From assembly GCA_965227805.1 (NCBI GenBank), contig CBDDGJ010000001.1, positions 34,249 to 98,248 on the forward strand: a stretch of 64,000 nucleotides of DNA, read 5' to 3'. The DNA comes from Parvibaculaceae bacterium. GTDB lineage: Bacteria > Pseudomonadota > Alphaproteobacteria > RS24. This document shows positions 4,527-54,336 of the stretch, one piece after another; within the stretch, counting starts at the first letter, position 1; every line of letters starts with the position of its first letter. The translations under genes were made by a program, and so were the position numbers. Below the pieces are notes generated by a model. The model was not told the DNA's origin, ran no database searches, and saw only the letters and a list, made by a program, of their open reading frames with translations.

Positions 4527-6455
4527 ATGTTGCATGCCATATTATTTTTACCCCTTGCTGGCGCCGTGATAGCAGGCTTTTTTGGTCGTTTTATCGGTGC
4601 GCGGGCAAGCGCGCTTATAACCAGTATATTTTTAAGTATTGCGGCCATTTTATCATGGCATGTATTGATAACGCTTATATCCACCGGTGAGACGGGTAGC
4701 GTAAAAATATTGGACTGGATTCATTCGGGCGATCTTGTGCTTGATTGGTATTTCCGCCTTGATATGCTAAGCGCAGTCATGCTGGTTGTGGTAAATAGCG
4801 TATCGGCTTTGGTGCATATCTATTCCATTGGCTATATGAGCCATGATCCCGATAGACCACGTTTTTTTGCCTATTTATCGCTCTTTACCTTTATGATGCT
4901 GGCTTTGGTGACGGCAGATAATTTTTTACAGCTTTTCTTTGGCTGGGAAGGCGTTGGGCTTGCCTCTTACTTATTGATCGGGTTCTGGTTCAAAAAAACA
5001 TCGGCAAATAATGCAGCGATTAAGGCCTTTGTGGTCAATCGGGTAGGAGACTTTGGTTTGATTTTAGGTATGGCGGCTATTTATTTCACCGTTGGGTCGC
5101 TTGATTTTGATATTGTTTTTGCATCTGCCTTTGCCCTGGCGCAGGGGCAATTTGAATTTTTATCCATGACGGTGCCAAGCCTCACGGCAATTTGCCTGCT
5201 TCTATTTATGGGGGCAATGGGAAAGTCGGCACAGTTTTTTCTGCATACATGGCTTCCCGATGCAATGGAAGGGCCTACGCCGGTTTCGGCGCTTATTCAT
5301 GCGGCCACTATGGTGACAGCCGGTGTATTTTTGCTTGCGCGATGCTCTCCACTTTTTGAATTATCGCAAACGGCATTAAATGTTGTTATTGTGATGGGGG
5401 CGCTTACCGCCTTTTTTGCGGCAACGATTGGGCTTGTGCAAAATGATATTAAGCGGGTTATTGCCTATTCAACCTGCTCGCAATTAGGCTATATGTTTGT
5501 AGCACTTGGCGTAGGGGCTTACCAAATTGCGCTCTTTCACCTGTTTACACATGCTTTTTTCAAAGCATTACTGTTTTTGGGTGCCGGTTCGGTTATTCAT
5601 GCTATGGGCAATGAGCAAGATATGCGTAAAATGGGGGGGCTCAGCACATTTATTCCGATAAGTTGGGTGCTTATGCTTATTGGCACATTGGCACTTACTG
5701 GTTTTCCGCTTACGGCAGGTTATTTCTCGAAAGATGCCATTATCGAAGCAGCCTTTATATCGCATAGTGCACCCCATATGTTTAGCTTTGCTTTATTGGT
5801 TGTCGCGGCGGCGTTCACCTCTTTTTATTCTTGGCGACTTATTTTTCTTACCTTTCATGGGCAACCGCGCTGCACCAATGAAGTGTTAAACCGTGTTCAT
5901 GAAAGCCCTCTGGTTATGCTGGTGCCGCTTATTTTGCTGGCATTTGGGGCTTTGGCGGCGGGGTATATATTCGCGCCTTATTTTATCGGGGCGCATCAGG
6001 CAGATTTCTGGCAAGGCAGTATTTTTGTAGCCGAAAATAACCATATTTTACGTGATATACATACAGTGCCCTTATGGGTGAAACTTGCGCCTCTTATTAT
6101 GATGCTGCTTGGGTTTTTGGGTGCCTGGTTATGTTATATAAAGTTTCCGTCTGTGCCAGCAGCGATTGCGGGTGAGCATGATTTAGCTTACAAATTTTTA
6201 CTACATAAATGGTATTTTGATGAGCTTTACCATTTCATTTTTGTGCGTCCTCTTGGCGGTGTGGCGCGGTTTTTATGGAAAAAAGGTGATGGTCGTGTGA
6301 TAGATGGTATCGGGCCAGATGGTGTTGCCGCTTTGGTTGAGCGCGCAACATCAATGATTGTGCGCTTGCAAACAGGATATGTATATCATTATGCATTTGC
6401 GATGCTTCTGGGTGTTGCCGCTTTGGTAAGCTGGTTTATGTTGGGGATTAAGTAA
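4527..6455 (+). CDS. nuoL: NADH-quinone oxidoreductase subunit L
   Basis: 642-aa antiporter-like subunit with the motif WLPDAMEGPTPVSALIHAATMVTAGVF. Confidence 0.95.
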   Translation: MLHAILFLPLAGAVIAGFFGRFIGARASALITSIFLSIAAILSWHVLITLISTGETGSVKILDWIHSGDLVLDWYFRLDMLSAVMLVVVNSVSALVHIYSIGYMSHDPDRPRFFAYLSLFTFMMLALVTADNFLQLFFGWEGVGLASYLLIGFWFKKTSANNAAIKAFVVNRVGDFGLILGMAAIYFTVGSLDFDIVFASAFALAQGQFEFLSMTVPSLTAICLLLFMGAMGKSAQFFLHTWLPDAMEGPTPVSALIHAATMVTAGVFLLARCSPLFELSQTALNVVIVMGALTAFFAATIGLVQNDIKRVIAYSTCSQLGYMFVALGVGAYQIALFHLFTHAFFKALLFLGAGSVIHAMGNEQDMRKMGGLSTFIPISWVLMLIGTLALTGFPLTAGYFSKDAIIEAAFISHSAPHMFSFALLVVAAAFTSFYSWRLIFLTFHGQPRCTNEVLNRVHESPLVMLVPLILLAFGALAAGYIFAPYFIGAHQADFWQGSIFVAENNHILRDIHTVPLWVKLAPLIMMLLGFLGAWLCYIKFPSVPAAIAGEHDLAYKFLLHKWYFDELYHFIFVRPLGGVARFLWKKGDGRVIDGIGPDGVAALVERATSMIVRLQTGYVYHYAFAMLLGVAALVSWFMLGIK

Positions 6456-7970
6456 ATGACGAATTGGCCTATTCTCTCAACCATTACATTTTTACCCCTT
6501 TTCGGCGCATTATTTATTTTTCTCATTCGTGGCGATGAAGCAACCATTGCACGTAATAGTAAGGCCGTCGCCCTTTGGACGAGCTTTATCACCCTTGTTT
6601 TAACTATCTTCATGGTAGGTGCTTTTGATGGCACACGCGCCGATATGCAATTTGTTGAACGGGTAAGATGGTTGGGGGGCGGCATTGATTATGCAATGGG
6701 GGTTGATGGTATTTCATTGCTCTTTATTGTGCTTACGGCATCACTTATGCCGTTATGTATTTTGGCAAGCTGGCAAAGTATCACCTACCGCGTGCGTGAA
6801 TATATGCTTGCCTTTTTGATTTTAGAAACATTGATGATCGGTGTGTTTTGCGCGATGGATCTGGTATTATTTTATCTTTTCTTTGAAGGTGGCCTTATTC
6901 CGATGTTTTTAATTATCGGCATCTGGGGGGGAGAACGGCGCGTTTATGCTGGTTTCAAATTTTTCCTATATACGCTGCTTGGGTCGGTTTTAATGTTGCT
7001 TGCGATTATGGTGATGTATTGGCAAACGGGAACAACCTATATTCCTGACCTCATGGCATATCCATTTGCATCTGACATACAAATATGGCTATGGCTTGCT
7101 TTTTTCGCGTCTTTTGCAGTGAAAATGCCGATGTGGCCAGTGCATACATGGCTGCCAGATGCGCATGTAGAAGCACCGACAGCAGGGTCGATGATCCTTG
7201 CCGGCATTTTATTGAAAATGGGGGGCTATGGGTTTTTACGCTTTTCCTTGCCTATGTTTCCGATCGCTTCGGATTATTTTGCGCCCTTTATATTCTTTTT
7301 AAGCGCGGTTGCAATTATTTATGCGTCGCTGGTTGCCTTTGCGCAGGAAGATATGAAAAAACTTATCGCCTATTCATCCGTTGCCCATATGGGGTTTGTC
7401 ACTATGGGTATATTTGCAGCAACCACGCAAGGGGTGCAAGGCGCGGTGTTCCAGATGTTGTCACATGGGTGGGTTTCGGCAGCCTTATTCTTTTGTGTCG
7501 GGGTGATTTATGACCGCATGCATACGCGTGATATTTCTGCCTATGGCGGGCTTGCGACCAGAATGCCGATTTACGCGACATTTTTCATGCTATTTACAAT
7601 GGCAAATGTTGGTTTGCCGGGCACATCGGGTTTTGTTGGCGAGTTTCTCACAATTTTAGGAACATTTCAGATAAGCACATGGACAGCCCTTTTTGCCGCA
7701 AGCGGTGTTATTTTTTCTGCCATATACGCACTTACGCTTTATCGGCGTGTAAGTTTTGGAACGATAGATAATGAATCTCTTATTGATATTTCCGATATGA
7801 ATATGCGTGAAATCGGAATTATGTTACCCCTTGCGCTTGCAACTGTGCTATTTGGCATTTGGCCGGTTTTCATATTGGATGACATTACGGCTGCTTCAAT
7901 TGAGCTACTTCTGAGCCAATATCACGATGCTTTGGTTGTGCATAGTTCGGGTGTTTTAAGTGTGGAATAG
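6456..7970 (+). CDS. nuoM: NADH-quinone oxidoreductase subunit M
   Basis: Motif [30 protein letters not shown]. It starts immediately after the nuoL stop. Confidence 0.95.
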
Positions 7971-7978
7971 GGGGGGAT

Positions 7979-9457
7979 ATGTTTACTGATATATTTGCCA
8001 TTTTGCCTGAATTAACTCTATTTCTTGTGGCAATGGGCTTGCTTATGGTTGGTGCATTCCGCAATTCGGTCTCACTTATATCGATGAATTGGGCAGCAAT
8101 AGGCGGGCTTGCCCTTGCAATTATTTTTAGCCTCATACAAAGCGGTGCGCCGCTTATGGCATTTCAAAACACCTTTATTGTTAACGAGTTTACGCATTTT
8201 ATCAAAATCGTGATTTACTTTACGGTCATTATCGCTTTGCTGCTTTCTACAGGCTTTATGCTTAAAGAAAAAATCGCACGCTTTGAATATCCTGTTTTGG
8301 TGTTGCTGGCAGCAACGGGTATGGGGATGATGGTGTCGGCGAATGACCTGATCGCTATGTATTTGGGCATAGAGCTGCAAAGTCTGACGCTTTATGTGTT
8401 GGCCGCCATCCACCGCGATTCGTTGCGCGCGAGCGAAGCGAGTATGAAATATTTTGTATTAGGTGCTTTGTCTTCTGGCATGCTGCTTTATGGATGTTCT
8501 TTGCTTTACGGATTTTCCGGCACCACAAATTTTGACTTATTAGCTACCCGTATTTCGGGAAGCGGCGCAGATATTCCTCTATCATTTATTGTAGGCATTA
8601 TTTTTGTTTTGGCAGGGCTTGCCTTCAAAATATCGGCAGTGCCGTTTCATATGTGGACACCCGATGTCTATGAAGGGGCACCAAGTCCGGTGACGGCATT
8701 TTTTGCAGCAGCTCCCAAAATTGCAGCCATGGCACTATTGCTCAGGCTCTTGATAACGGCATTTCCTAATGCGCTTGTGGCCTGGCAACAGATAATTGTG
8801 TTTCTTGCGATTACCAGCATGTTACTGGGGGCGTTTTCTGCTATCGGACAGCGCAATATTAAGCGGCTTATGGCTTATTCGTCTATTGGTCACATGGGGT
8901 ATGCGTTAGTGGGGTTATCTACGGGGACAGTTGAAGGGATTGCCGGCGTGGCGATTTATATGGTGATTTATGGCGCCATGACGCTGGGCGCCTTTGCGTG
9001 TATTTTAGCGATGCGGCGTGATGAGACACTCGTTGAGAAAATAGATGATCTAGCAGGCTTAAGCCGACAACAACCTTTTATGTCGGCGGCATTAGCGATT
9101 TTAATGTTCTCGCTGGCAGGTATTCCACCATTGGCCGGTTTTTTCGGTAAATTTTATGTATTTCGCGCCGCGATAGAGGCAGAGCTTTACGGGCTTGCCC
9201 TTATTGGTGTATTGGCAAGTGTGGTTGCGGCTTTTTATTATTTACGCATTGTTAAAATTCTTTATCTTGATAATACCGAAGATGAAACTTTGGATAAGAT
9301 GCCGCGTGACTTATCCATTATTGCGGGGTGTATGGCAGGCTTTGCGCTCTTATTCTTTGTCTATCCATCTGTTTTGGTTGACATTGCCTATGCAGCAGCA
9401 CAGGCCCTTATTACAACCGATGAAACCATATTTGCCGTGCTTACCCTGCTATGGTAA
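7979..9457 (+). CDS. nuoN: NADH-quinone oxidoreductase subunit N
   Basis: Motif PFHMWTPDVYEGAPSPVTAFF. It is the last gene of the nuo operon. Confidence 0.95.
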   Translation: MFTDIFAILPELTLFLVAMGLLMVGAFRNSVSLISMNWAAIGGLALAIIFSLIQSGAPLMAFQNTFIVNEFTHFIKIVIYFTVIIALLLSTGFMLKEKIARFEYPVLVLLAATGMGMMVSANDLIAMYLGIELQSLTLYVLAAIHRDSLRASEASMKYFVLGALSSGMLLYGCSLLYGFSGTTNFDLLATRISGSGADIPLSFIVGIIFVLAGLAFKISAVPFHMWTPDVYEGAPSPVTAFFAAAPKIAAMALLLRLLITAFPNALVAWQQIIVFLAITSMLLGAFSAIGQRNIKRLMAYSSIGHMGYALVGLSTGTVEGIAGVAIYMVIYGAMTLGAFACILAMRRDETLVEKIDDLAGLSRQQPFMSAALAILMFSLAGIPPLAGFFGKFYVFRAAIEAELYGLALIGVLASVVAAFYYLRIVKILYLDNTEDETLDKMPRDLSIIAGCMAGFALLFFVYPSVLVDIAYAAAQALITTDETIFAVLTLLW

Positions 9458-10227
9458 ATGCCGATTTTCCGGGGTATAGGCTTTTACAATTTGGTGAAAT
9501 TGATAGCACCAATGAAGAAGCAAAACGCCTGGGCGCACAAGGTGAAACGCATGCATGCTGGATAATGGCGGAACGTCAAAATGCTGGGCGCGGGCGGCGC
9601 GCGCGGCAATGGGACTCACCACGCGGTAATTTGATGACCACACTTTATTTGCCCGAACGCATGGCGTTGACGAAAGCAGGCTTTTTCTCTTTTATTGCCG
9701 GACTTGCTTTGTTTGATACGGTTGCGCATTTTATTACCGCTACGCAAACACAAAAAGCGCTTCGCTTGAAATGGCCGAATGATTTACTATTCAACAACGC
9801 AAAAATTGCCGGTATTTTATTAGAGACAGCGTCGCTGGAAAATGAAATGATTAGCTGGATTGCGATTGGTATTGGGCTTAATTTACGCTATTTTCCCACA
9901 GATACACCTTATCCAGCCACTGCGCTTTTACCGGCAACGGGGGTGGAGGTATCACCTCTTGACGCCCAGAAAGTTTTAGCGGCACGTTTTACACATTATA
10001 AAACTTTATATGAGGCGCAAGGGTTTTCTGCCCTTAGAGATTTATGGATGATGCGGGCGCAAGGCAAGGGAGAGCGGGTTTTCGTTCGTCTACCGCAAGC
10101 AACAAAAGTGGGTATATTTAATGATATAAATGAAACTGGTGCTCTTATCTTGCAGTTGGATAATGGGCAAAGGGAAGACATATTCGTCGGTGATGTATAT
10201 TTTGATCCTCCTGATGGAGGCAGATGA
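9451..10227 (+). CDS. birA: Biotin--[acetyl-CoA-carboxylase] ligase (no N-terminal HTH domain)
   Basis: Biotin-binding loop QNAGRGRRARQWDSPRGNL. At 258 aa it is too short to carry a repressor HTH domain. Confidence 0.85.
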   Translation: MVNADFPGYRLLQFGEIDSTNEEAKRLGAQGETHACWIMAERQNAGRGRRARQWDSPRGNLMTTLYLPERMALTKAGFFSFIAGLALFDTVAHFITATQTQKALRLKWPNDLLFNNAKIAGILLETASLENEMISWIAIGIGLNLRYFPTDTPYPATALLPATGVEVSPLDAQKVLAARFTHYKTLYEAQGFSALRDLWMMRAQGKGERVFVRLPQATKVGIFNDINETGALILQLDNGQREDIFVGDVYFDPPDGGR

Positions 10228-16590: not shown

Positions 16591-16611
16591 AGCGTTATTC
16601 CAGTTTAGTGG

Positions 16612-16925
16612 AAGGCTCCTGTTGCCGGGTGCCTTCCGAACCCCGCCTAACCCTTGCGACGGATTAGGGCTTTAGGTGAAATTCTGGCACCGCTTACGCA
16701 GCGACAGCAACTTCCGCATAGTTGTCATTTGCAACTAAAAAATGGCCCGATAACGATGGTGCCATGCCGAGCGCCGGTTACTTCCTTTACGCCCTCGTCG
16801 ATCCTGTTTCGCCCCCAAAATGGACTATATGGTGGAGGCGCCGGGTACTGCCCCCGGGTCCGATGGGTTTATTACGAAGCCCGTTTATCGCTATAGTCGA
16901 GCAAAGCCGACACCCCTATATACGC
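16612..16925 (-). ncRNA. ssrA: tmRNA, circularly permuted two-piece form
   Basis: On the minus strand the tag reading frame GCA AAT GAC AAC TAT GCG GAA GTT GCT GTC GCT GCG TAA (16732..16694) encodes ANDNYAEVAVAA. The coding piece starts GGGGGCGAAACAGGATCGACGAGGGCG at 16816. Upstream of it, the acceptor piece ends GCCTCCACCA at 16830, which gives a G3:U pair with the 5' strand. The outer ends are approximate. Confidence 0.8.
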
Positions 16926-43023: not shown

Positions 43024-44706
43024 ATGATTAACTCAAACTTTTCAGATTTGATTGCAATCCCGCATAAACTGTCTGCGATGGTTGTACATTTAAAATTTAA
43101 TAATATTAACATAAAGTTAGTATCACTTCTAAATGCCCTCCAAAATATAACCAGCTTTTTATTGATGATAATCCCCCTAAAAGCATTATTATTTATACTT
43201 AGTGACAGGTATTATTTTGCAATTTTAGGTGATAATATAGATAAATTTATTTACTTATCTATACTAATTTTGATATTTTTGTTTTTTGCAATAATAGATC
43301 ATTTTATTAAAGCCCGCATTAAGACAATCAAGTATCAACTTTCAGTAAAGTATAGAAATATAGACAGATATAAGGTTTTTAATAGCCAAAACTACTTTGT
43401 TGTACCAATTATTGATCACATGATCGATTTTTATTCATCTATAATTTTGTTTTCCCTATATTTTGCCATAGCTCTTTTAATAAAACCAATTGTAGGTTTT
43501 TTGTATGCTTTTATTGTTGTTATGTTTGCATTTGTCTTTTTGCGCGTCAAGAATAGCCATACAACTAAGAGGCTTTCTTATTTTTTCTACTTCAGAATAA
43601 TATCAATAACACTAACACTTATTTTTATTGTAAGTATTTTAAATGAAACAGTAATATTTTTGTCTTTAGTCCTTTTTTTTGTAACTCGACAATGGCTTGC
43701 TCAAATAATTCAAATAGGTTCTGTACTTGTTAAGTTAGATAATGTGAAAATGCCACGGGTTCTTATTTCTCGGAAATTAGATGACCAAGAAACACTCAAA
43801 CATCCTACTATTATGAAAACGTACATTAACGATGAAATAAAGCATAACATAATAAAACTAATTTCAAGAAAAGTTGAAGGTAAGTATGTCGAACTGAACG
43901 AATTTAGATTTAGATATTTATATACCCCGCTTTCATCTATAGACACTTTTTATCTTTCTGGACCACAAAACGATTTGGTCCCAAAAAATAATTTGGTTGT
44001 TTACTACAAAAAACTGCAGTTATTTCTCAGTGAGCTGGAGTTGCAACCATTATTTCGTTGTTCTTCTTTAACTTGCGATATAGAGATCGTTCAGCATCGT
44101 GAGTTAAACGGTGTGGTTTTTAAGGAAGAAATTGGGAGTAGATATTCTAAAAACAGTTTTATGAAAAATATCCAACATATACTGGTAGAACTTTGGAAAG
44201 TTAATCCAGAGTATGGCGCTGTAAATGGTATTAATGATTGTTATATTGAACGAAATTTGAATAAGAACATTATTGAAGACCTTATTTTGATTGCTGAGAA
44301 CGATCAAGAAAGAGCTATTCTTAGCAGCCTAGCTCAAAAGACTGATCTAATTATAGAAAAAATTTCAAAGTATCCTCAGGTGTTTTTTCACCCTTTTTTT
44401 TCATCCGATATTTTTTTTCAGGGCAACGATGATACACCTAGAATGATAGGTTTTGGTTATCTGGAAGTAGCTCCTGTTGGGGTACAACTTGCATTTATTG
44501 AAAAGGATTTAAGTCCAGAACAATTAAATGTTATTCTAAAACAATTGCTATCAAGTAGACCTGAGTTCTCCAATATCTTACCAGACGATTTATTGGTTCC
44601 TAAGATAGCATATCAATTTTTAAGAGCATTTAGGCAAGCGCAATACGTAAATGCGAAGTATAAAGCAATCAAACTAGCTGCGGCTGTGGAAAGACATGAT
44701 ATATAG
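43024..44706 (+). CDS. Hypothetical membrane protein (N-terminal TM bundle plus a ~300-aa soluble domain)
   Basis: 560 aa in very AT-rich DNA. The first ~240 aa contain several hydrophobic helices. There is no Walker A motif. In the C-terminal part, VFFHPFFSSDIFFQGNDDTPRMIGFGYLEVAP weakly resembles the catalytic-loop region of an APH/kinase fold, but without the HxD residues. Confidence 0.5.
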   Translation: MINSNFSDLIAIPHKLSAMVVHLKFNNINIKLVSLLNALQNITSFLLMIIPLKALLFILSDRYYFAILGDNIDKFIYLSILILIFLFFAIIDHFIKARIKTIKYQLSVKYRNIDRYKVFNSQNYFVVPIIDHMIDFYSSIILFSLYFAIALLIKPIVGFLYAFIVVMFAFVFLRVKNSHTTKRLSYFFYFRIISITLTLIFIVSILNETVIFLSLVLFFVTRQWLAQIIQIGSVLVKLDNVKMPRVLISRKLDDQETLKHPTIMKTYINDEIKHNIIKLISRKVEGKYVELNEFRFRYLYTPLSSIDTFYLSGPQNDLVPKNNLVVYYKKLQLFLSELELQPLFRCSSLTCDIEIVQHRELNGVVFKEEIGSRYSKNSFMKNIQHILVELWKVNPEYGAVNGINDCYIERNLNKNIIEDLILIAENDQERAILSSLAQKTDLIIEKISKYPQVFFHPFFSSDIFFQGNDDTPRMIGFGYLEVAPVGVQLAFIEKDLSPEQLNVILKQLLSSRPEFSNILPDDLLVPKIAYQFLRAFRQAQYVNAKYKAIKLAAAVERHDI

Positions 44707-47041
44707 AAAATTTTCAACCGGCTGGATGCTCCTAGGCCGTCAAACACTATTAAAAAATTACTCCGCAATAGCTGGGTGGGATGAATATGACCTTGGGAGT
44801 TTTACTCTTTTTAGTGAACCTGACAATAAATACTTGGTCTGCAAACATGGTGATACGCAGATCATATGCTTCGGACTAATCAACAATGTCTATAATTATT
44901 TGTTGGAGAGTGAAGAAATACTAAAGGATATGACTAAAGGTTTAGCTGAGCAGGGTTTTGAAGCGTTATATAAATCAATAATTCCATTAGGTGGTAGTTT
45001 TGTACTGATTATAAAGAAAGATGATGATGTCTATGTTATTCTTGATGCCTCAGGATCGAAGCCAGCATGTTTTTTCAAGAATGAAAGTATAAGATGCATT
45101 AGTTCGCATCCCAGATTGATCGGTAGAGGGTTTGAATTAAACGAAAGTGAATTTTCGATTGGTTGGCGAAATCACCCTAAAGTGGGAGCAGGTGGTAGGT
45201 ATTATCCTGGATTAAAGACTATGTACGAAAATGTTTTAGCAATTACTCCGAACCTAATATTCTGTGCAAATACGAATTCATTCAGCAGATGGTATCCATT
45301 TCGCAATTTGCCGCATTTGACGATAGATGAAGTCGTCAAGGAAACATCACCATTGTTAAAAAACCAACTCAAATGGTTAATAGCAAAAACTAAAAAGTTA
45401 TATATATCATTGAGTGGCGGCATAGATACGAGGCTTACCTTGGCTTTGAGCCGAGACATTTATAATGCTTGTACATATTTTACCTATTTCAATAAGGGGC
45501 CAATATTAAATACCGATGTAGTGACGGCTCAACTACTTAGCAAAAAACTGGGTTTGAGACACAAGATTTTTCCTTCAAGCTCAGTTCCCGACAAACAATA
45601 CGAACAAGATTTTTACGAGAGTGAAGGCGAAATTAGATCATCACCAATGACACTTTTTGAAATGCACAAAAATATCCCGCAAAATTGTGTTCATGTAAGA
45701 TCAAATGTATTAGAGGTTGCTCGAGGTTTTTATCTAAAAAACAAGGCTAATCATCCAAATAAATTTGATGCTGAAAGGTTGTCACGATTATTTAGAAATT
45801 CAACTAAAGATTTGTTCGTCAAAGAGTTTCAAGAATTTATAGATGAAACACATTTTGTACAGGAAAATTTCTTTAACTATCACTATTCAGACTTATATTA
45901 TATGGAACATAGGCTTGCGTGTAATTATGGCCCTATTCTCCGAGGGCATGGTGGTGCGTTCGAAACCTATTCAATATATAATAGTTACGCCATTATAGAG
46001 CTACTTCTATCCATCGACAAGATTGAGCGTAGTGCCAATTCAGCAATACTGGAATTAATAAAATATCAATGGCCTGAAACCCTCGATGTTCCGATATTTA
46101 GTGGATCAAAATTTTTATCTAATCCTCTGCTCAAGGATGCAGATGATTTAAAATTTGAACTTGAACTAAAAGTCAATACTGAACGATCATCAGCACCGCC
46201 GAAAGGCTTTCGAATGTACGTTAACCCCGCAACGGGTATACCAATATCTTGGTACGGCACATATAAAGGTGTTGATATTGGATTAAAGACGTCGACATTG
46301 TCTTTGGCAGAACGTGGAATATACTATTGGAATAAGTATCTTCGAAAAGGCAAAAGGCAATACTTACTTTCCTACGATTGGGAAGTCACTTACCCCAGCA
46401 ATAAAGACACTGAACCTAGGAGTCAGGATGACGCCGCTATTGCTATGCAGAATTGCGCAGATGTTCTTATCACCAGTTACACTGAAAAAGACGGTTTTTC
46501 GATTTGGCTCCATGACTATCCTTTCCCTTACAATACTCCTTCTGGATGGAGCAGTGCTCATTCGCAAGCAGCGGGTATGCTACTATTAGCGCTAACATTT
46601 AAATTAACCAAAAATGAAAAGTATTTCTTACCGATTAATAAGCTCTCAAATGCGTTCTCAAAATCTATAGAAGAAGGCAGTTTTTCTGTAAGATTAGGGG
46701 CCGATTCTGTTTGGTATGAGAAAATTAGTTCTGCTGAGAATGATCAGCCACGAATTTTAAATGGCATGATGATGACATTGTTATATCTATATGAAACCTA
46801 TAAATTAACTGAAGACGAACAATTATATGATTATTTTCTAAAGGGATTTACTGCTTTAGAGCAAAATATAAAAAAGTATGACACAGGAACTTGGTCATTA
46901 TACGACAAGTGGAAAAAATCATCTCGACATTATCATGAATTACATATGGACCAGCTAGTCGAACTAATAAAAATCAAACCCAGTGCCCGCTTAATTTTAA
47001 CATTAGCATTGTTCAAAATTTATTATTTATTTAACAAATGA
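44696..47041 (+). CDS. Fusion protein: asparagine-synthetase-like (PP-loop adenylating) domain plus D-glucuronyl C5-epimerase-like C-terminal domain
   Basis: GGSFVLIIKKDDDVYVILDASGSKPACFF fits the AsnB N-domain pattern, but there is no Cys at position 2. The PP-loop is LYISLSGGIDTRLTLAL. The C-terminus carries GWSSAHSQAAGMLLLALTFKLTKNEKY, ILNGMMMTLLYLYE, YDTGTWSLYD and YHELHMDQLVEL, which fits the C5-epimerase C-terminal pattern. Confidence 0.65.
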   Translation: MIYRKFSTGWMLLGRQTLLKNYSAIAGWDEYDLGSFTLFSEPDNKYLVCKHGDTQIICFGLINNVYNYLLESEEILKDMTKGLAEQGFEALYKSIIPLGGSFVLIIKKDDDVYVILDASGSKPACFFKNESIRCISSHPRLIGRGFELNESEFSIGWRNHPKVGAGGRYYPGLKTMYENVLAITPNLIFCANTNSFSRWYPFRNLPHLTIDEVVKETSPLLKNQLKWLIAKTKKLYISLSGGIDTRLTLALSRDIYNACTYFTYFNKGPILNTDVVTAQLLSKKLGLRHKIFPSSSVPDKQYEQDFYESEGEIRSSPMTLFEMHKNIPQNCVHVRSNVLEVARGFYLKNKANHPNKFDAERLSRLFRNSTKDLFVKEFQEFIDETHFVQENFFNYHYSDLYYMEHRLACNYGPILRGHGGAFETYSIYNSYAIIELLLSIDKIERSANSAILELIKYQWPETLDVPIFSGSKFLSNPLLKDADDLKFELELKVNTERSSAPPKGFRMYVNPATGIPISWYGTYKGVDIGLKTSTLSLAERGIYYWNKYLRKGKRQYLLSYDWEVTYPSNKDTEPRSQDDAAIAMQNCADVLITSYTEKDGFSIWLHDYPFPYNTPSGWSSAHSQAAGMLLLALTFKLTKNEKYFLPINKLSNAFSKSIEEGSFSVRLGADSVWYEKISSAENDQPRILNGMMMTLLYLYETYKLTEDEQLYDYFLKGFTALEQNIKKYDTGTWSLYDKWKKSSRHYHELHMDQLVELIKIKPSARLILTLALFKIYYLFNK

Positions 47042-47089: not shown

Positions 47090-48307
47090 ATGATTGTTTG
47101 GAACGATTTCCGTAATGACGCTCGGGTTCTAAAGGAAGCACAGACACTTCAATCTGCTGGTTATCAGGTGACGGTACATGCTATACATACACCTGGAGTG
47201 ACTCAGAAACATGAAACCCTGCCTTGTGGCGTAAAAGTAGTACGTGTCGCCCGTAGTCCATTGTGGAAATGGCGTAAAAAGAATCTGGCTACGGCTAATG
47301 GTAATACACAAGCGCAGGGGAAAAAGCCATCGGGTCCTATTAAAAAATTATCTCTGAAAGGCCAACTTCTGCGTATTATCGCTCGTGGCTGGACTCACTT
47401 GTGGTTGCTGTATCAGCTAGTGCGTTCCAAGCCAGATGTGGTACATGGTCACGATGTAAATACCCTACCTACAGCCTGGCTGGCCTCGGTGATTGCCCGT
47501 GTGCCTCTGGTCTACGATGCTCATGAGATCAGTACTGATCGGGAAGGTTATGCTAGTTTCCGTAAAGTAGTGGGTTGCATTGAGAAATGCCTTATGCCAA
47601 GAGCAGCAGGGAGAATCACCACTACCGATACCCGTGCCAAGTTTTTTGCACGTGCCTACGGTATTTCCCGACCATTGGTTTTGCAGAATCGATCGCAATA
47701 TCTATTGGTAGATCGTTCTGAAAGAATTCGGAATGAACTTAATTTGCAAGAAAGATGGCCCATTGTGCTCTACCAGGGTGGCTTGCAACAAGGGCGGGGG
47801 CTTGAGCGTATTATTGATGTCGCACAAGAAGTAAAAAACGCTTATTTTGTCTTTATCGGTGGTGGCCGTCTTGAACCTAAATTAAAAAAACAGGCTGCTC
47901 GATTAAATCTTAAAGGTAAGGTGTATTTTATTGATACAGTGTCATTGGATGACTTGCCCTATTACACGGCTTCAGCAGATATAGGTGTGCAGGCAATAGA
48001 GAATACCTGTTTTAACCATTTCTCTACCGATTCAAATAAAGTTTTTGAATATGTTATGGCTGGCTTGCCCGTTATTTCTTCTAACCTACCAGAAATCCGA
48101 AAATTGATAAAAGAATACAGTTTTGGTGTGTTGGTGGAACCTGGATGTAATAATTCTTTAAAAGAGGCTATTCAGCAACTTGTAGATGACAAAATGCTAC
48201 GCTATAAGTTAAGTTGTAAATCCAGTGTTGTAAAAACTAAATTAAACTGGGAGGAGCAGCAATCGAAGTTAATTGATCTTTATACGGAGATCATCCGAGG
48301 CCATTGA
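47090..48307 (+). CDS. Glycosyltransferase family 4 (GT-B)
   Basis: 405 aa. The N-terminal GT4 donor-less domain has HGHDVNTLPTAW. The C-terminal part has ..SADIGVQAIENTCFNHFSTDSNKVFEYVMAGLPVISS, an E-x7-E-like region. Confidence 0.8.
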   Translation: MIVWNDFRNDARVLKEAQTLQSAGYQVTVHAIHTPGVTQKHETLPCGVKVVRVARSPLWKWRKKNLATANGNTQAQGKKPSGPIKKLSLKGQLLRIIARGWTHLWLLYQLVRSKPDVVHGHDVNTLPTAWLASVIARVPLVYDAHEISTDREGYASFRKVVGCIEKCLMPRAAGRITTTDTRAKFFARAYGISRPLVLQNRSQYLLVDRSERIRNELNLQERWPIVLYQGGLQQGRGLERIIDVAQEVKNAYFVFIGGGRLEPKLKKQAARLNLKGKVYFIDTVSLDDLPYYTASADIGVQAIENTCFNHFSTDSNKVFEYVMAGLPVISSNLPEIRKLIKEYSFGVLVEPGCNNSLKEAIQQLVDDKMLRYKLSCKSSVVKTKLNWEEQQSKLIDLYTEIIRGH

Positions 48308-49491
48308 TGCGTATTCTTTATTTGTCTTTTTATTTTGAGCCAGATTTCGGACCCGCTGCAATACGAAACACACTTATTGCAAAAAAATTGTCCGAACATA
48401 ACTCTGTCGCTGAAGTACATGTTATAACAACAATGCCGCATCGGTGGAAGGATAGCTTTAGTCGTTCGGAAAATGGCTCAAAAAAACTAAAAATCTCAAA
48501 AGTTGATACTGCCTCAAAGCATAATGGCATTTTAGGGCAGATTTTTCGCTTTTTTGTGTATCAAAAATTTGTTCGTAAAAGTTGTATATCACAAGATTAC
48601 GACTTGGTTTTTGCCTCATCTTCGAAGTTAGGCACGTCTCTTCTTGGGGCACTGATGTCAAAAAAACTAAAAGCCTATTACTATCTCGATATTAGAGATT
48701 TGTTTATAGAAACAATTGATGATTTTTTACCCGGCAGAATTTTTAAACCGATAAAATTTATTCTGTTTGTTTTAAATAGATATAGTATTAAAAAAGCTCA
48801 TCGCATAAATGCGCTATCAACTTCATTCATAAATCAATTGTCCCAGATAAATAGTGAGGTAAAAATAAGATCCATTTATCATGGAATTGACAGTCAATTT
48901 CTTAATGTTGTTGGCAGGCGCGCTAACATCGATTTTTACAAAAAATCTCGATGCCACAATAAAACACTGCTTTACGCTGGTAATTTTGGTTTCGGGCAAG
49001 GTTTGCATAAATATCTCCCGGCTATATCATCATTGTTACCACCTAATTGGGAAATTCATTTATATGGTGACGGACCTAAAAAGAATGAAGTAGCAGAAAG
49101 TGCTGCTAACTTAAAAAACGTGAAATTATTTCCTTTTGTCGAAAGGAGTGAGTTGCCTGAGATATATTCGAAATCCGATATATTGTTTCTCACACTAAAT
49201 TCTACGCTTGCATTTCAAAACAGTTTGCCTTCAAAAATTTTTGAGTATTGTGTGACTGGCAAGCCAGTTATCGCTTTTTGTAGTGGGTACCTTCAAAAGT
49301 TTATCCTAGAAAATAACATCGAAGGTGTTTACTCCATAAATCAAGATGACTTTGGTAAACTCAGGGAAATATTACCTGAAGTGGAGGGCAAAGAGTTTGA
49401 TCGTACGCTCTTTTTCGAGAAATGGTGTAGAGAAAAACAAGTTAAGTTAATGGTGGACGATATAATTTCATTAGGTTTGAATATCCCCTAG
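48304..49491 (+). CDS. Glycosyltransferase family 4, WbuB/WcaI-like
   Basis: MRILYLSFYFEPDFGPAAIRNTLIAKKL is a WbuB/WcaI-type N-terminus. The C-terminal part has LPSKIFEYCVTGKPVIAF. Its start overlaps the stop of the previous GT gene. Confidence 0.75.
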   Translation: MMRILYLSFYFEPDFGPAAIRNTLIAKKLSEHNSVAEVHVITTMPHRWKDSFSRSENGSKKLKISKVDTASKHNGILGQIFRFFVYQKFVRKSCISQDYDLVFASSSKLGTSLLGALMSKKLKAYYYLDIRDLFIETIDDFLPGRIFKPIKFILFVLNRYSIKKAHRINALSTSFINQLSQINSEVKIRSIYHGIDSQFLNVVGRRANIDFYKKSRCHNKTLLYAGNFGFGQGLHKYLPAISSLLPPNWEIHLYGDGPKKNEVAESAANLKNVKLFPFVERSELPEIYSKSDILFLTLNSTLAFQNSLPSKIFEYCVTGKPVIAFCSGYLQKFILENNIEGVYSINQDDFGKLREILPEVEGKEFDRTLFFEKWCREKQVKLMVDDIISLGLNIP

Positions 49492-49660: not shown

Positions 49661-49783
49661 GGTAATCCCCCCATAAATTAGTAGTTTTTTGAAGTAGAAT
49701 TTTCTATCGTTTAGCGAAGGAGATTTACGATGAAACAGAAACGATTTAGTGAGACACAGATTATGCAGATATTGAAACAGGCG
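49661..49783 (+). mobile_element. IS type A left-end fragment (~120 bp)
   Basis: By eye I saw no mismatch to 35231-35353, which covers the IR GGTAATCCCCCCATAAATTAG and the first OrfA codons. It abuts an inverted type A right end. Confidence 0.85.
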
Positions 49784-50290
49784 GGTAATCCCCCCTTTAT
49801 TATTAGGGGTCTGAAGTAGACAGTTTTGTTTTGGTGGCTTTAGCCAGTTTCATTGCTGGTGTTATGCCGCCGATAGCCATACTAGGTCTTTCATTATTAT
49901 ATGTCCATAGCCATTTTGTTGCCGTGAGTTGCGCCTCCTCAATCGTATTAAATTCGTTCATCTCCAGCCATTCATGCCTGACGGTGCGGTTGTAACGTTC
50001 AATATAAGCGTTCTGTTGTGGCTTGCCTGGCTGGATATGAGCGAGCCGGATGCCTCGCTTATTTGCCCAGCATCTCACTGCCCCACTGATATATTCAGGG
50101 CCATTATCACAACGTATCACGCGTGGTTTACCACGCCATTCAATGATCTGCTCCAGTGAACGCTTCACACGCTCAGATGGTAAGGATAGATCAACCTCTA
50201 TACCCAACCCTTCACGATTGAAGTCATCCAATACATTGAAGGTTCGGAACGCCTTGCCGGTGCTGAGCTGGTCGGCCATAAAATCCATCG
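49784..50290 (-). pseudogene. IS type A 3' part (OrfB C-terminal ~160 codons plus right IR), inverted
   Basis: [29 protein letters not shown]... matches copy 1 OrfB except for a few substitutions (e.g. RTVRHEW versus RTVSHEW). The IR is GGTAATCCCCCCTTTATTATTAGG at 49784. Confidence 0.85.
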
Positions 50291-52194: not shown

Positions 52195-53940
52195 TTATGC
52201 TATATCTAGCTGATAGTCGCCTGAGCTGTCATCACTGCTATATAAATAAATGTAATAAGTCTCGGTCGCATCTGCCGTAAATGTAAGCCTGTCTATATTG
52301 GTTCCAGCATTATTTGTAGCGCCTAGTATTGTTGTAGCTGTTTCATCCAGAACGAAGAAATTACCATCAAAACCTGCATCTTGTGTTACGGTAATTGTGT
52401 ATTGAGTGTCTTGCGTAACAGATAAGGCGTAGAAATCTATATCGTTACCTGACTCAATCGTGTCGGTTACACTTGTGCTGGTCTGAAGTGCATCTAAAAT
52501 AATATGAGCTTGCGTGTAATAGCCTCCTGTTGTGCTATCAGCGCCTGTGACGGATAGATAATATGTGCCGGCGGTTAATGTATGTGTTCCAAGTTCAGTT
52601 CCACCAGCACCATTTATATTGGTATTCGTAGAGCTTATTACAGTGCCATTGATATCATATAGCCCGTTAATTCTGATGTCGAGTGAACTACTTTCCGATT
52701 CGCTGTATGTTAAAAAGGCATAATCGTCATCTTCAGTGATTGTAACTTGATGCCAATCTTCATCACTAGAAAAATCTATTATGCCCGATATATCAGAGTT
52801 ACCCCTATTTAACGTGAGTGAGGCCTCTGTTGCACTATCGGCTGATAAATCATCTTCAAAAACGTGTAATGTGTAATCACTACCCAAAAGTGAATGTTGT
52901 CCATTATATATTACAAAATAATAATCGCCAGATTCACTTGGTGTATAGGTGAAATCACCGTCTAAAGAATCAAAATTTGTAGCTGTTGCGTCAAAAATAT
53001 AATAGGCAGGAGAAAAAAAAGATTTTTCGTTAACCGTTTCAAAAGAATACATCTTATTTGCTGTTAGAAATAAACGATATAAATGCGCTTCATCAAACGA
53101 AAGTGTATTAAAAATATTTATACTCACTATATCTTCACCGATAGTTAAATCAGCAACATCTCCGGTTAAATCGAGCACATCTCCGGTTAAATCAGTATAC
53201 TCTGGGCTGGTTGCATCAGGATATTCTGCGATGGTTACATCAGAACCAATGGTTAAATCAGTATACTCTGGGCTGGTTGCATCAGGATATTCTGCGATGG
53301 TTACATCAGAACCAATGGTTAAATCAGGATACTCTGGGCTGGTTGCATCAGGATATTCTGTGCTGGTTACATCAGCAACATCTACGGTTAAATCAGTATA
53401 CTGTGTGCTGGTTACATCATACGTATCTGGACTGGTGGATGAAGTAGACGTATCTGGGCTAAGTGCACTGGAAGCAGCTACACTAGATATATAGGCCTCT
53501 CGCACAGCGTAGGGGATGATGCGATAATCACCTGTTGTGTCATTTGCACTACCCACAGCAAAATAATACGCGCCTGCGTCCAAAGTATAAATGCCTACCT
53601 CGGTATCATTATTGTAATTATTAGCGTTTATTATATCTCCATTAACGAGGTTTCCATTTTCATCATATATGCCGAGAATTTCAGTGTTTATTGTAGGTGA
53701 CCGTGCGTTAACGAGAAAGAGATATTCCCCGCTTTCATTGATGACAATTTTATGCCAGTCTTGATCGCTGGCGGCTTCTATTTCGCCCCCTGTGGTTGTG
53801 GCGCTATCTACAGCTATTGTAGATGCCGTTGCGGGGGTATCCGTAAAATCGTCTGAACCGGATGACACGTCACCATCACCGTTGCCGCTATCACTGGCGC
53901 TCCCACCGCAGGCTGTTAGCACTAGCATGGATGTCATCAT
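52195..53940 (-). CDS. Surface lipoprotein with about four PPC (pre-peptidase C-terminal)-like modules and a central tandem repeat
   Basis: The signal and lipobox are MMTSMLVLTAC|GG. The upstream ATG at 54063 would add 41 non-signal residues. Module endings recur: DAGAYYFAVGSANDTTGDYRI, SGDYYFVIYNG...DYTLHV, TAGTYYLSVTGADSTTGGYY and TETYYIYLYSSDDSSGDYQLDIA. DWH(K/Q)(I/V) motifs are present. No catalytic domain was recognised. Confidence 0.65.
   Translation of the reverse strand: MMTSMLVLTACGGSASDSGNGDGDVSSGSDDFTDTPATASTIAVDSATTTGGEIEAASDQDWHKIVINESGEYLFLVNARSPTINTEILGIYDENGNLVNGDIINANNYNNDTEVGIYTLDAGAYYFAVGSANDTTGDYRIIPYAVREAYISSVAASSALSPDTSTSSTSPDTYDVTSTQYTDLTVDVADVTSTEYPDATSPEYPDLTIGSDVTIAEYPDATSPEYTDLTIGSDVTIAEYPDATSPEYTDLTGDVLDLTGDVADLTIGEDIVSINIFNTLSFDEAHLYRLFLTANKMYSFETVNEKSFFSPAYYIFDATATNFDSLDGDFTYTPSESGDYYFVIYNGQHSLLGSDYTLHVFEDDLSADSATEASLTLNRGNSDISGIIDFSSDEDWHQVTITEDDDYAFLTYSESESSSLDIRINGLYDINGTVISSTNTNINGAGGTELGTHTLTAGTYYLSVTGADSTTGGYYTQAHIILDALQTSTSVTDTIESGNDIDFYALSVTQDTQYTITVTQDAGFDGNFFVLDETATTILGATNNAGTNIDRLTFTADATETYYIYLYSSDDSSGDYQLDIA
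53201..53400 (-). repeat. Tandem repeat, 66-bp unit, about 3 copies, in frame in the lipoprotein gene
   Basis: Units at 53201 and 53267 are almost identical and a third at 53333 is diverged. They encode repeats of the form DATSPEYTDLTIGSDVTIAEYP. Confidence 0.9.
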
Positions 53941-54336
53941 GCCAAAAGGCGCATAAAGTTTTCTATGCCTGATTTTGACATAAGGCTTCAAGAAATCAAA
54001 TGCTGTGACGTTTTGTGATTTATTGCGTGACTGTGCGATAAAAATAGACGCGAATGATGTCATGGCCTACCTCCATATCCTTTTGCCATTATGACAGCCC
54101 CTCTATCATCACCATTTCCCTTCTTTGATTTTGCCACACTATTATTCTAGTTACAAGCATAAAATCGCGTAAAATTACGAAAAGGCGGTGGCCGAAAACA
54201 GCTGATTTATATTACCTTTCCACGTCGTATGATAGCTTTCTGTAAGGCGATCTGCTGCATTTTTCCTGTTTCGGCAATATGTATATTCATCCAGATAGCG
54301 TCCCTCAATCCACCTCGAAATTGTTCCACACATGAT

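Follow-up and report, generated by a model that had tools for sequence, protein, structure and literature searches.

The 64,000-nucleotide stretch analysed here (the window; Parvibaculaceae bacterium, GenBank assembly GCA_965227805.1, contig CBDDGJ010000001.1, positions 34,249 to 98,248 of the forward strand) carries a gene for a 781-residue protein that joins two enzyme-like halves. The N-terminal half (N-domain) is predicted to adopt the fold of the asparagine synthetase (AsnB) superfamily, and the C-terminal half (C-domain) is related to the D-glucuronyl C5-epimerase GLCE. The domain fusion is genuine and very rare: it was seen in the window and a single metagenome contig, and other loci have the two parts split. 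We give an even chance to the reading that the protein is a bifunctional cytoplasmic glycan-tailoring enzyme, which epimerises and then amidates one uronic acid residue in a mobile polysaccharide operon.

Architecture of the fusion protein

The fusion gene is a single open reading frame (ORF) without interruption, and its product begins MIYRKF. An earlier reading of this DNA from its letters alone (the sequence-only reading) had described one ORF with a series of motifs, all of which are located in the protein: GGSFVLIIKKDDDVYVILDASGSKPACFF at residues 99-127, GWSSAHSQ at 617-624, ILNG at 687-690, YDTGTWSLYD at 728-737 and HYHELH at 745-750. An in-frame stop lies seven codons 5' of the start codon, which rules out a hidden N-terminal extension or Cys and confirms that the nucleophilic Cys1 is missing, as had been proposed. 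No signal peptide or transmembrane segment is predicted (maximum Kyte-Doolittle 19-residue window, 1.49). Because the protein lacks a hydrophobic segment and its N-domain would need ATP, it is probably cytoplasmic. The features of the gene are as follows.

44696..47041, + strand: fusion ORF, 781 residues plus stop, predicted soluble
44696..45310, + strand: Ntn (N-terminal nucleophile)-amidotransferase-like sub-domain, residues 1-205, without the Cys1 nucleophile; β-rich in the model, with alignment to the AsnB, CarA and β-lactam synthetase glutaminase domains
45311..46123, + strand: PP-loop ATP-pyrophosphatase (synthetase) sub-domain, residues 206-476; from the model, Foldseek and profile matches
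45407..45436, + strand: PP-loop motif SLSGGIDTRL, residues 238-247; aligns with the NadE and CarA PP-loops
46124..46213, + strand: inter-domain linker, residues 477-506; weak conservation and lower pLDDT (predicted local distance difference test)
46214..47038, + strand: GLCE-like C5-epimerase domain, residues 507-781; from PF06662, the model, Foldseek and the clade profile
46721..46726, + strand: K676-I677, at the positions of GLCE E499-Y500; from profile alignments
46760..46762, + strand: N689, equivalent of GLCE N510; from profile alignments
46901..46903, + strand: Y736, equivalent of GLCE Y560; from profile alignments
46931..46936, + strand: Y746-H747, Y746 being the equivalent of GLCE Y578; from profile alignments

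The C-terminal domain and the GLCE family

The C-domain matches PF06662 (C5-epim_C) over residues 613-761 (E=8e-27; 94.4 bits against a cut-off of 23.3), which upholds the earlier assignment of this half to a C5-epimerase-type domain. In addition, the single C-domain sequence finds zebrafish Glce (4PW2) in a PDB sequence search, and a profile built from the 17-member bacterial clade matches human GLCE (6hzz) at E=1e-32. The AlphaFold model of the domain (pLDDT 92.6) consists of a short β-hairpin followed by eight helices. Compared with the PDB by Foldseek, this model places GLCE at all of ranks 1-8 (E about 2e-9, root-mean-square deviation (rmsd) 2.6-2.8 Å, about 215 columns), with 6i01, 6hzz and 4pxq as the best chains, and the next fold class, the AGE-type 2-epimerases, follows at E 3e-4, five orders of magnitude behind. 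The sequence-only reading had suggested a structural comparison with GLCE and had named an unrelated toroid such as a lyase as the outcome that would speak against it; the best fold match is GLCE itself. A lyase identity was considered in its own right and rejected, since GLCE ranks above every lyase and hydrolase fold. The Pfam scan also returns a weak sub-threshold GH88 match.

The catalytic residues of GLCE, in human numbering, are E499, Y500, N510, Y560 and Y578 (PMC13308652). Hidden Markov model alignments show that three of the five are kept, as N689, Y736 and Y746, respectively; N689 is invariant in the bacterial clade, Y736 and Y746 are each conserved in at least 90% of it, and the Y578-equivalent position is pinned by the Y578F mutant chain 6I01. 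Judged from profile and model, the C-domain genuinely belongs to PF06662 and has an altered catalytic set.

The resemblance to GLCE thus extends to the PF06662 domain, to the helical catalytic fold (rmsd 2.6 Å over about 215 columns) and to the N510, Y560 and Y578 equivalents. The differences from the animal enzyme are equally marked. The N-terminal β-hairpin and β-sandwich domains of animal GLCE are missing, only about 215 of about 510 GLCE residues being aligned by Foldseek; the window protein is signal-less and predicted to be cytoplasmic, whereas animal GLCE is Golgi-luminal; Lys followed by Ile or Phe replaces the E499-Y500 dyad; the domain is fused to an AsnB-like domain; and the likely substrate is a ManNAcA (N-acetylmannosaminuronic acid)-type residue rather than glucuronic acid flanked by N-sulfated glucosamine. 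Stand-alone bacterial PF06662 homologues likewise do without the animal N-terminal domains (PMC3068255), and the C-domain is similar to them in size and in its polysaccharide-cluster setting. PF06662 proteins of roughly 300 residues in O-antigen clusters were catalogued as early as 2011 (PMC3068255), so the earlier remark that bacterial GLCE homologues are rare was overstated.

The N-terminal domain and the AsnB superfamily

The AlphaFold model of the N-domain (pLDDT 89, predicted template modelling score 0.91) aligns over 496-542 columns with CarA, the hydroxyamidotransferase TsnB9, β-lactam synthetase, E. coli AsnB and human ASNS (Foldseek E 1e-15 to 5e-10, template modelling score 0.55-0.67). 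The best structural matches are CarA, TsnB9 and β-lactam synthetase, with AsnB itself ranking behind, and the lower ranks contain both the Ntn amidotransferases GlmS and PurF and the PP-loop enzymes NadE, TilS, TtuA and LarE. At the sequence level the signal is far fainter: the sole direct family match is a weak PP-loop similarity to LarE (NCBIfam), and the family profile run against the PDB gives only weak PP-loop matches, to NadE and CarA. Three relatives (P0008, P0010 and P0019) and an E. coli plasmid protein, with 29-32% identity to the N-domain, score against TIGR01536 at 4e-14 to 2.5e-4, with 20-52 bits where the cut-off is 267. One relative weakly matches a lasso-type macrolactam cyclase model, below threshold, and one bears the PGAP label 'asparagine synthase-related protein'.

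Conservation among 12 family members follows both halves of the fold. Specifically, S238, S240, G241, G242, D244 and R246 of the PP-loop are invariant, as are D117 (LDASG) and S137-H138-P139 in the Ntn-like half, and the family has invariant motifs of its own at residues 335-340 (RSNxxE), 396-406 (HYSDLxYxEHR) and 468-471 (FSGS). A Met-Cys start occurs in none of 11 N-domain homologues. On the evidence of the model, the N-domain is an AsnB-superfamily fold without the glutaminase nucleophile that lies outside the curated AsnB family. The term 'AsnB-like' is therefore valid at the level of fold and superfamily, not of family membership; of the earlier assignment to the AsnB family, the two-domain fold and the intact PP-loop stand, while the expected PF00733 match fails. 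An acetamidino synthase of the WbpG/PseA type was also considered and dropped, there being no match to an NCBIfam model for such enzymes.

In the AsnB superfamily, a carboxylate is activated by adenylation and its acyl group is then transferred to a nitrogen nucleophile, forming an amide. Members without a glutaminase use other amines or an intramolecular nitrogen, and in CarA, TsnB9 and β-lactam synthetase the nucleophile is something other than glutamine-derived ammonia. With this glutaminase-less group (CarA 1Q15, β-lactam synthetase 1JGT, TsnB9 7YLZ and the lasso-peptide/macrolactam cyclases), the N-domain shares the full-length Ntn-like plus PP-loop fold, the SxSGGxDS/T PP-loop, the absence of Cys1 and, by expectation, a chemistry in which a nitrogen nucleophile attacks the adenylated carboxylate. 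It differs from this group in being only 10-15% identical and below all curated family thresholds, in its own invariant motifs (SHP, RSNxxE, HYSDLFYWEHR, FSGS), and in its polysaccharide context, where those enzymes serve secondary metabolites.

The fusion is real and rare

The fusion protein was compared exhaustively by phmmer with 1.84 billion representative proteins, which gave 3,190 matches at E <=0.001; the best 150 were inspected. Among these 150, a single protein (P0001) spans the domain junction, which agrees with the sequence-only reading, to which no description of both activities on one polypeptide was known. About 130 of the 150 are N-domain proteins, mostly stand-alone and 470-520 residues long, and 16 are C-domain proteins, mostly stand-alone and 240-365 residues long; most of the 1,382 matches at E <=1e-10 belong to the AsnB-like N-domain family. 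Pfam finds C5-epim_C in none of eight longer N-domain proteins (P0019, P0058, P0071, P0075, P0078, P0105, P0127 and P0136); in the longer N-domain proteins scanned, the additional domain is a methyltransferase or GT28 where one is recognised at all. One C-domain protein, P0022, is an SGNH-C5-epim_C fusion. A word-index homologue search retrieved no protein with the C-terminal half alone and nine with the clade alignment, and no homologue is present in the phage collection.

P0001 derives from metagenome contig L001, which is colinear with all 781 residues of the window protein (47% and 44% identity by tblastn) and keeps one reading frame across the junction. Its surrounding genes also match those of the window: a glycosyltransferase family 4 (GT4)-methyltransferase gene, a homologue of the 560-residue neighbour, the fusion and a GT4 gene. 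The L001 linker differs by 17 residues in length. A single frameshift falls at query residue 563/565, in an A7 homopolymer about 57 residues inside the C-domain; on this contig, which is labelled '3x', it is most simply a sequencing error. In a Rhodobacter metagenome-assembled genome (MAG; L002, same contig as L008), each half has its own gene, with 47 bp between them, and both lie downstream of GT4 and methyltransferase genes. In locus L058, a distant N-domain paralogue (25% identity) ends a pyruvyl-transferase-GT4 protein of more than 1,696 residues, and the ORF that follows overlaps this one and starts with C5-epim_C.

That two adjacent genes were joined by faulty assembly or sequencing, or in a pseudogene, is a hardly credible explanation of this architecture. 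It could draw on the separate half-genes of L002 and L058 and on the frameshift in the sole other fused copy, but that frameshift lies well within the C-domain at the A7 run, the L001 frame is intact over the junction, and the window ORF is unbroken. Moreover, stand-alone C-domain proteins begin at the equivalent of about residue 505-507 and stand-alone N-domain proteins end just past FSGSKF, so the junction unites the natural termini of both families through a linker of about 30 residues, and the two halves of the gene are uniform in GC content (0.358 in the N half, 0.363 in the C half) and equal in GC at third codon positions. These termini, the uniform composition and the L001 frame make an artefact very unlikely; the frameshift error that the sequence-only reading had allowed for is ruled against by the uninterrupted ORF and the single frame across the L001 junction.

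The operon and its IS-bracketed island

The fusion gene is the fifth of seven co-directional genes whose spacings or overlaps range from a few to about 50 bases. The six neighbours, together with the flanking repeat arms, are listed below.

35927..36433, strand not assigned: left inverted IS3-family repeat arm, 507 nt, 99% complementary to 49784-50290; rve transposase domains
36806..37963, + strand: wecB, UDP-GlcNAc 2-epimerase, first gene of the operon; TIGR00236, 514 bits against 210
38007..39257, + strand: wecC, UDP-ManNAc dehydrogenase, supplying UDP-ManNAcA; NF008286, 632 bits against 459
39238..43017, + strand: 1259-residue protein with pyruvyl-transferase, GT4/GT1 and methyltransferase domains; from domain scans
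43024..44706, + strand: 560-residue protein, N-terminal third hydrophobic and the rest apparently soluble; 11-nt overlap with the start of the fusion gene
47090..48307, + strand: GT4 glycosyltransferase gene; from domain scans
48304..49491, + strand: GT1 glycosyltransferase gene, end of the operon; from domain scans
49784..50290, strand not assigned: right inverted IS3-family repeat arm, paired with 35927-36433

The proposal that wecB and wecC supply UDP-ManNAcA is confirmed to the extent that both genes lie upstream in the same operon and score above their equivalog cut-offs. The 560-residue neighbour has no Pfam, NCBIfam or PDB match, and its homologue at the same position in L001 is 26% identical. 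The gene for the 1259-residue protein contains three tandem 93-nt (31-residue) repeats, 98-100% identical, at window positions 40568-40847; they belong to the spacer that separates the pyruvyl-transferase domain from the GT4 domain and are Lys/Glu-rich with a coiled-coil-like look.

Inverted IS3-family insertion sequence (IS) copies flank the whole polysaccharide operon (36.8-49.5 kb), and the cluster has a GC content of 34-41%, compared with 45-49% on either side. The arrangement resembles a composite transposon or mobile island, and this low-GC, IS-bracketed setting suggests that bacteria probably exchange the trait. A perfect 124-nt direct repeat (35231-35354 and 49661-49784) is also present, beside a phage-type integrase fragment at 34439-35491 (- strand). 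Just outside the island, past the IS copies, lies a gene for a 622-residue protein with Por_Secre_tail (C-terminal sorting by T9SS, the type IX secretion machinery) and PPC domains (52195-54063, - strand). Elsewhere in the window, a tmRNA gene at 16603-16922 (- strand) encodes the tag peptide ANDNYAEVAVAA.

Related loci and module shuffling

Gene neighbourhoods were surveyed at 85 N-domain loci, 66 of them with at least 900 bp of downstream sequence. C-domain partners in this survey are restricted to L001, L002/L008 and L058, and wherever the two are linked the order is N-domain and then C-domain. The most constant partner of both domain families is a GT4 related to TIGR04063, which corresponds to the GT4 part of the 1259-residue protein and occurs in L001, L002, L003, L014, L058, L087, L088 and L089 at 42-59% identity. 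On the E. coli plasmid pCE1537-B, an N-domain gene stands beside wecB-wecC in a capsule locus of the ABC-transporter type.

The modules recur in varied combinations. In L058 (54-7101), the giant protein reads pyruvyl-transferase-GT4-N-domain, and the C-domain protein of this locus carries a C-terminal extension of about 370 residues with a weak polysaccharide deacetylase match. In L089 (2-1682) the C-domain follows directly after GT4, and in L090 the SGNH-C5-epim_C gene (8001-9773) lies near wecB, WecG and an ABC transporter. L088 (8104-10449), an E. coli plasmid capsule locus, has an N-domain with a 300-residue N-terminal extension beside wecB-wecC; the extension has no Pfam match, and the same extension in the relatives P0008 and P0019 is weakly XcbB/CpsF-like. 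Three N-domain paralogues occur within 8 kb in L004, from a Solirubrobacteraceae MAG (1473-2861, 6121-7548 and 7723-9108), with no C-domain in the locus. The GT4-methyltransferase-N-domain-C-domain cassette of the Rhodobacter MAG is placed between a Peptidase_G2 protein and a phage-type integrase (L002 3769-5325 and 12536-13714); Peptidase_G2 is a tailspike-type autoproteolytic domain, and this setting suggests a mobile or prophage-associated context. Additionally, heparinase II/III-like proteins (Hepar_II_III_N/C) are encoded at L006 16850-18661 and 1210-1983 and at L090 11293-12999; they share these loci with stand-alone C-domain genes, lie close to pyruvyl-transferase genes and represent a second uronic-acid-acting fold in such clusters.

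Comparison with known uronic acid tailoring systems

WbpS-type proteins are canonical glutamine-dependent AsnB members that possess Cys1 and score on the curated AsnB models. They are the accepted candidates for forming primary uronamides, and amidation is proposed to take place at the UDP-sugar level (PMC6025236); specifically, AsnB homologues of the WbpS/WbtH type are proposed to convert UDP-N-acetylgalactosaminuronic acid (UDP-GalNAcA) to its amide, UDP-GalNAcAN, in P. aeruginosa O6 and H. pullorum (PMC6025236). The N-domain resembles them in its AsnB relationship, its surface-glycan cluster and the expected conversion of a hexuronic acid carboxylate to an amide. It departs from them in lacking Cys1 and in falling under the PF00733 and TIGR01536 thresholds in scans that covered the N-domain, and for these reasons the WbpS-type comparison drawn in the sequence-only reading does not hold. 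A further difference concerns the level of action: WbpS-type amidation is proposed for the nucleotide sugar, whereas the fusion of the N-domain to a glycan-level epimerase suggests action on the assembled glycan.

A chemical parallel is found in the Vibrio polysaccharide (VPS) of V. cholerae, which contains L-GulNAcA (N-acetyl-L-gulosaminuronic acid) amide-linked to glycine (PMC3901696). According to a 2026 study, VpsA and VpsB supply the sugar, VpsK transfers ManNAcA, VpsJ performs C5 epimerisation on the lipid-linked disaccharide and VpsH then ligates glycine, a ligation that is lost when vpsJ is deleted (PMC13463779). VpsJ is described as a new class of epimerase whose fold is only remotely AGE-like, and VpsH is PaaK/CapK-like, of the ANL type (PMC13463779). 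The window module resembles the VPS module in that WecB/WecC-type enzymes supply ManNAcA and, as proposed, in C5 epimerisation to L-GulNAcA on a cytoplasmic lipid-linked intermediate, after which an ATP-type ligase would turn the C6 carboxylate into an amide. It differs in that VpsJ and VpsH are separate proteins and VpsH is not a PP-loop enzyme. As VpsJ and VpsH belong to other fold families by their published descriptions, the window protein would be an analogue of them, not a homologue.

Proposed function and alternative explanations

The reaction of GLCE-type enzymes is a reversible exchange of the C5 proton on a uronic acid that forms part of a glycan. In the proposed function, the operon would make UDP-ManNAcA through wecB and wecC, and its GT4/GT1 transferases would build the glycan. 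The C-domain would reversibly remove and re-add the C5 proton of a hexuronic acid residue within the lipid-linked or nascent glycan, most likely converting D-ManNAcA to L-GulNAcA on the cytoplasmic face; the ManNAcA-type substrate is suggested by gene context, because wecB and wecC are in the operon. Other loci also point to uronic acid: wecB and wecC, as pairs or singles, are found close to N-domain genes at roughly a dozen metagenome loci (a raw count) and on plasmid pCE1537-B, and a C-domain relative sits beside wecB and WecG. The N-domain would then use ATP to adenylate the C6 carboxylate of the epimerised residue, and the acyl group would go to free ammonia, an amine or an amino acid to give a uronamide. 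Irreversible amidation would trap the epimerised product, which would account for the adjacency or fusion of the two activities. We infer the substrate, the order of steps, the nitrogen donor and the activity of either domain. The N- and C-domains are linked in the window and L001 (fused), in the Rhodobacter MAG (adjacent) and in L058 (a paralogue with C5-epim_C next). Coupled epimerisation and amidation had already been put forward by the sequence-only reading; the domain identities, the genuine fusion, wecB/wecC and the chemical precedent of VPS speak for it, while the missing PF00733 match and the replacement of two of the five catalytic residues do not bear it out.

Several observations weigh against this function. 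Profile alignments show substitutions at two of GLCE's five catalytic positions: E499 corresponds to K676 and Y500 to I677. The Lys is invariant across the bacterial clade and is followed by Phe or Ile, Phe being the consensus (clade consensus WYEKF). With E499 and Y500 replaced, the GLCE mechanism is not transferable unchanged and the C-domain may turn out not to be an epimerase; the invariant Lys could act as a general acid/base or serve to neutralise a carboxylate. On the N-terminal side, the N-domain scores below threshold for every curated AsnB model, with no PF00733 or TIGR01536 match for the query in Pfam and NCBIfam scans. The linkage itself is patchy: about 60 of the 66 N-domain loci lack a C-domain and some C-domain loci lack an N-domain, so neither activity strictly needs the other, and the link is recurrent, not obligatory. 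The Rhodobacter locus has neither wecB nor wecC in the available 10 kb upstream and about 5 kb downstream. Finally, Pfam and NCBIfam scans recognise no initiating transferase, flippase, polymerase or ABC exporter in the island. The same scans find no glutaminase partner or obvious nitrogen-donor gene in the operon.

The least unlikely of the alternatives is that both domains act on the same polysaccharide but on different residues or at different stages, with no chemical coupling, as would be the case if amidation took place on the nucleotide sugar and epimerisation on the polymer, the fusion serving co-expression or assembly of a multi-enzyme complex. The modules are indeed freely shuffled (pyruvyl-transferase-GT4-methyltransferase, pyruvyl-transferase-GT4-N-domain, SGNH-C-domain, a C-domain with a weakly deacetylase-like extension, and an N-domain with an XcbB/CpsF-like domain attached), in each family the majority of members occur without the other, and for WbpS-type enzymes the UDP-sugar is the proposed level of amidation (PMC6025236). 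This explanation has to accommodate the constant order of the two domains, a linkage that arises in at least three independent contexts, one with a distant N-domain paralogue, and the VPS precedent, which puts both modifications on the same residue (PMC13463779). A rather more doubtful view is that the C-domain is no longer an epimerase and instead binds or presents a uronic-acid glycan to the amide synthetase, or acts as a lyase- or hydrolase-like enzyme. The clade-wide change of E499 to Lys and of Y500 to Ile/Phe would fit, as would the weak sub-threshold GH88 match and an α/α-barrel fold common to lyases and hydrolases (lower Foldseek ranks). Yet the N510, Y560 and Y578 equivalents and the adjacent His are conserved, the invariant Lys fits a catalytic or carboxylate-neutralising residue rather than decay, GLCE far outranks all other structural matches, and a cytoplasmic lyase would be odd in a biosynthetic operon.

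Decidedly improbable, in our judgement, is an adenylation-assisted epimerisation, in which the acyl-adenylate made by the N-domain would mainly acidify H5, the Lys-bearing GLCE-like site would epimerise, and an amine or water would resolve the adenylate. The clade-wide charge reversal at E499 would suit a substrate whose carboxylate is masked or bears a phosphate, the domains are physically fused or adjacent, and the operon has neither a glutaminase nor an obvious nitrogen-donor gene. We know of no precedent for such a polysaccharide epimerase, however, and stand-alone C-domain genes with the same Lys occur without an N-domain nearby, which argues that the Lys is independent of adenylation. 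In VPS, moreover, epimerisation precedes ligation and is independent of it (PMC13463779). A related scheme that would keep the amide, though improbable, is an ATP-driven irreversible C5 epimerisation: the adenylate would acidify H5, a Lys-retooled, GLCE-derived site would invert C5, and the amide would lock the L-configuration. If true, it would define a new mechanistic class of polysaccharide epimerase and would assign a function to a large orphan AsnB-like family.

Implications

L-configured and amidated hexuronic acids (GulNAcA, its amide GulNAcAN and amino-acid uronamides) are present in many bacterial surface glycans, and the responsible enzymes are mostly unassigned. For VPS, the first genetic assignment came only in 2026 and involved other protein families (PMC13463779). 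The coupled function proposed here offers the hypothesis of an epimerase joined to an irreversible trapping step; a similarly coupled interaction has been postulated for GLCE and 2-O-sulfotransferase (PMC12203961). If the proposal is true, the protein would be a soluble, cytoplasmic GLCE-type enzyme with an altered catalytic set, of interest for mechanistic work and for the engineering of glycosaminoglycan-like polymers. Together with its split and adjacent versions, the fusion acts as a Rosetta stone, tying to uronic acid tailoring both an uncharacterised AsnB-like family that is covered by no curated model and an uncharacterised bacterial clade of GLCE homologues.

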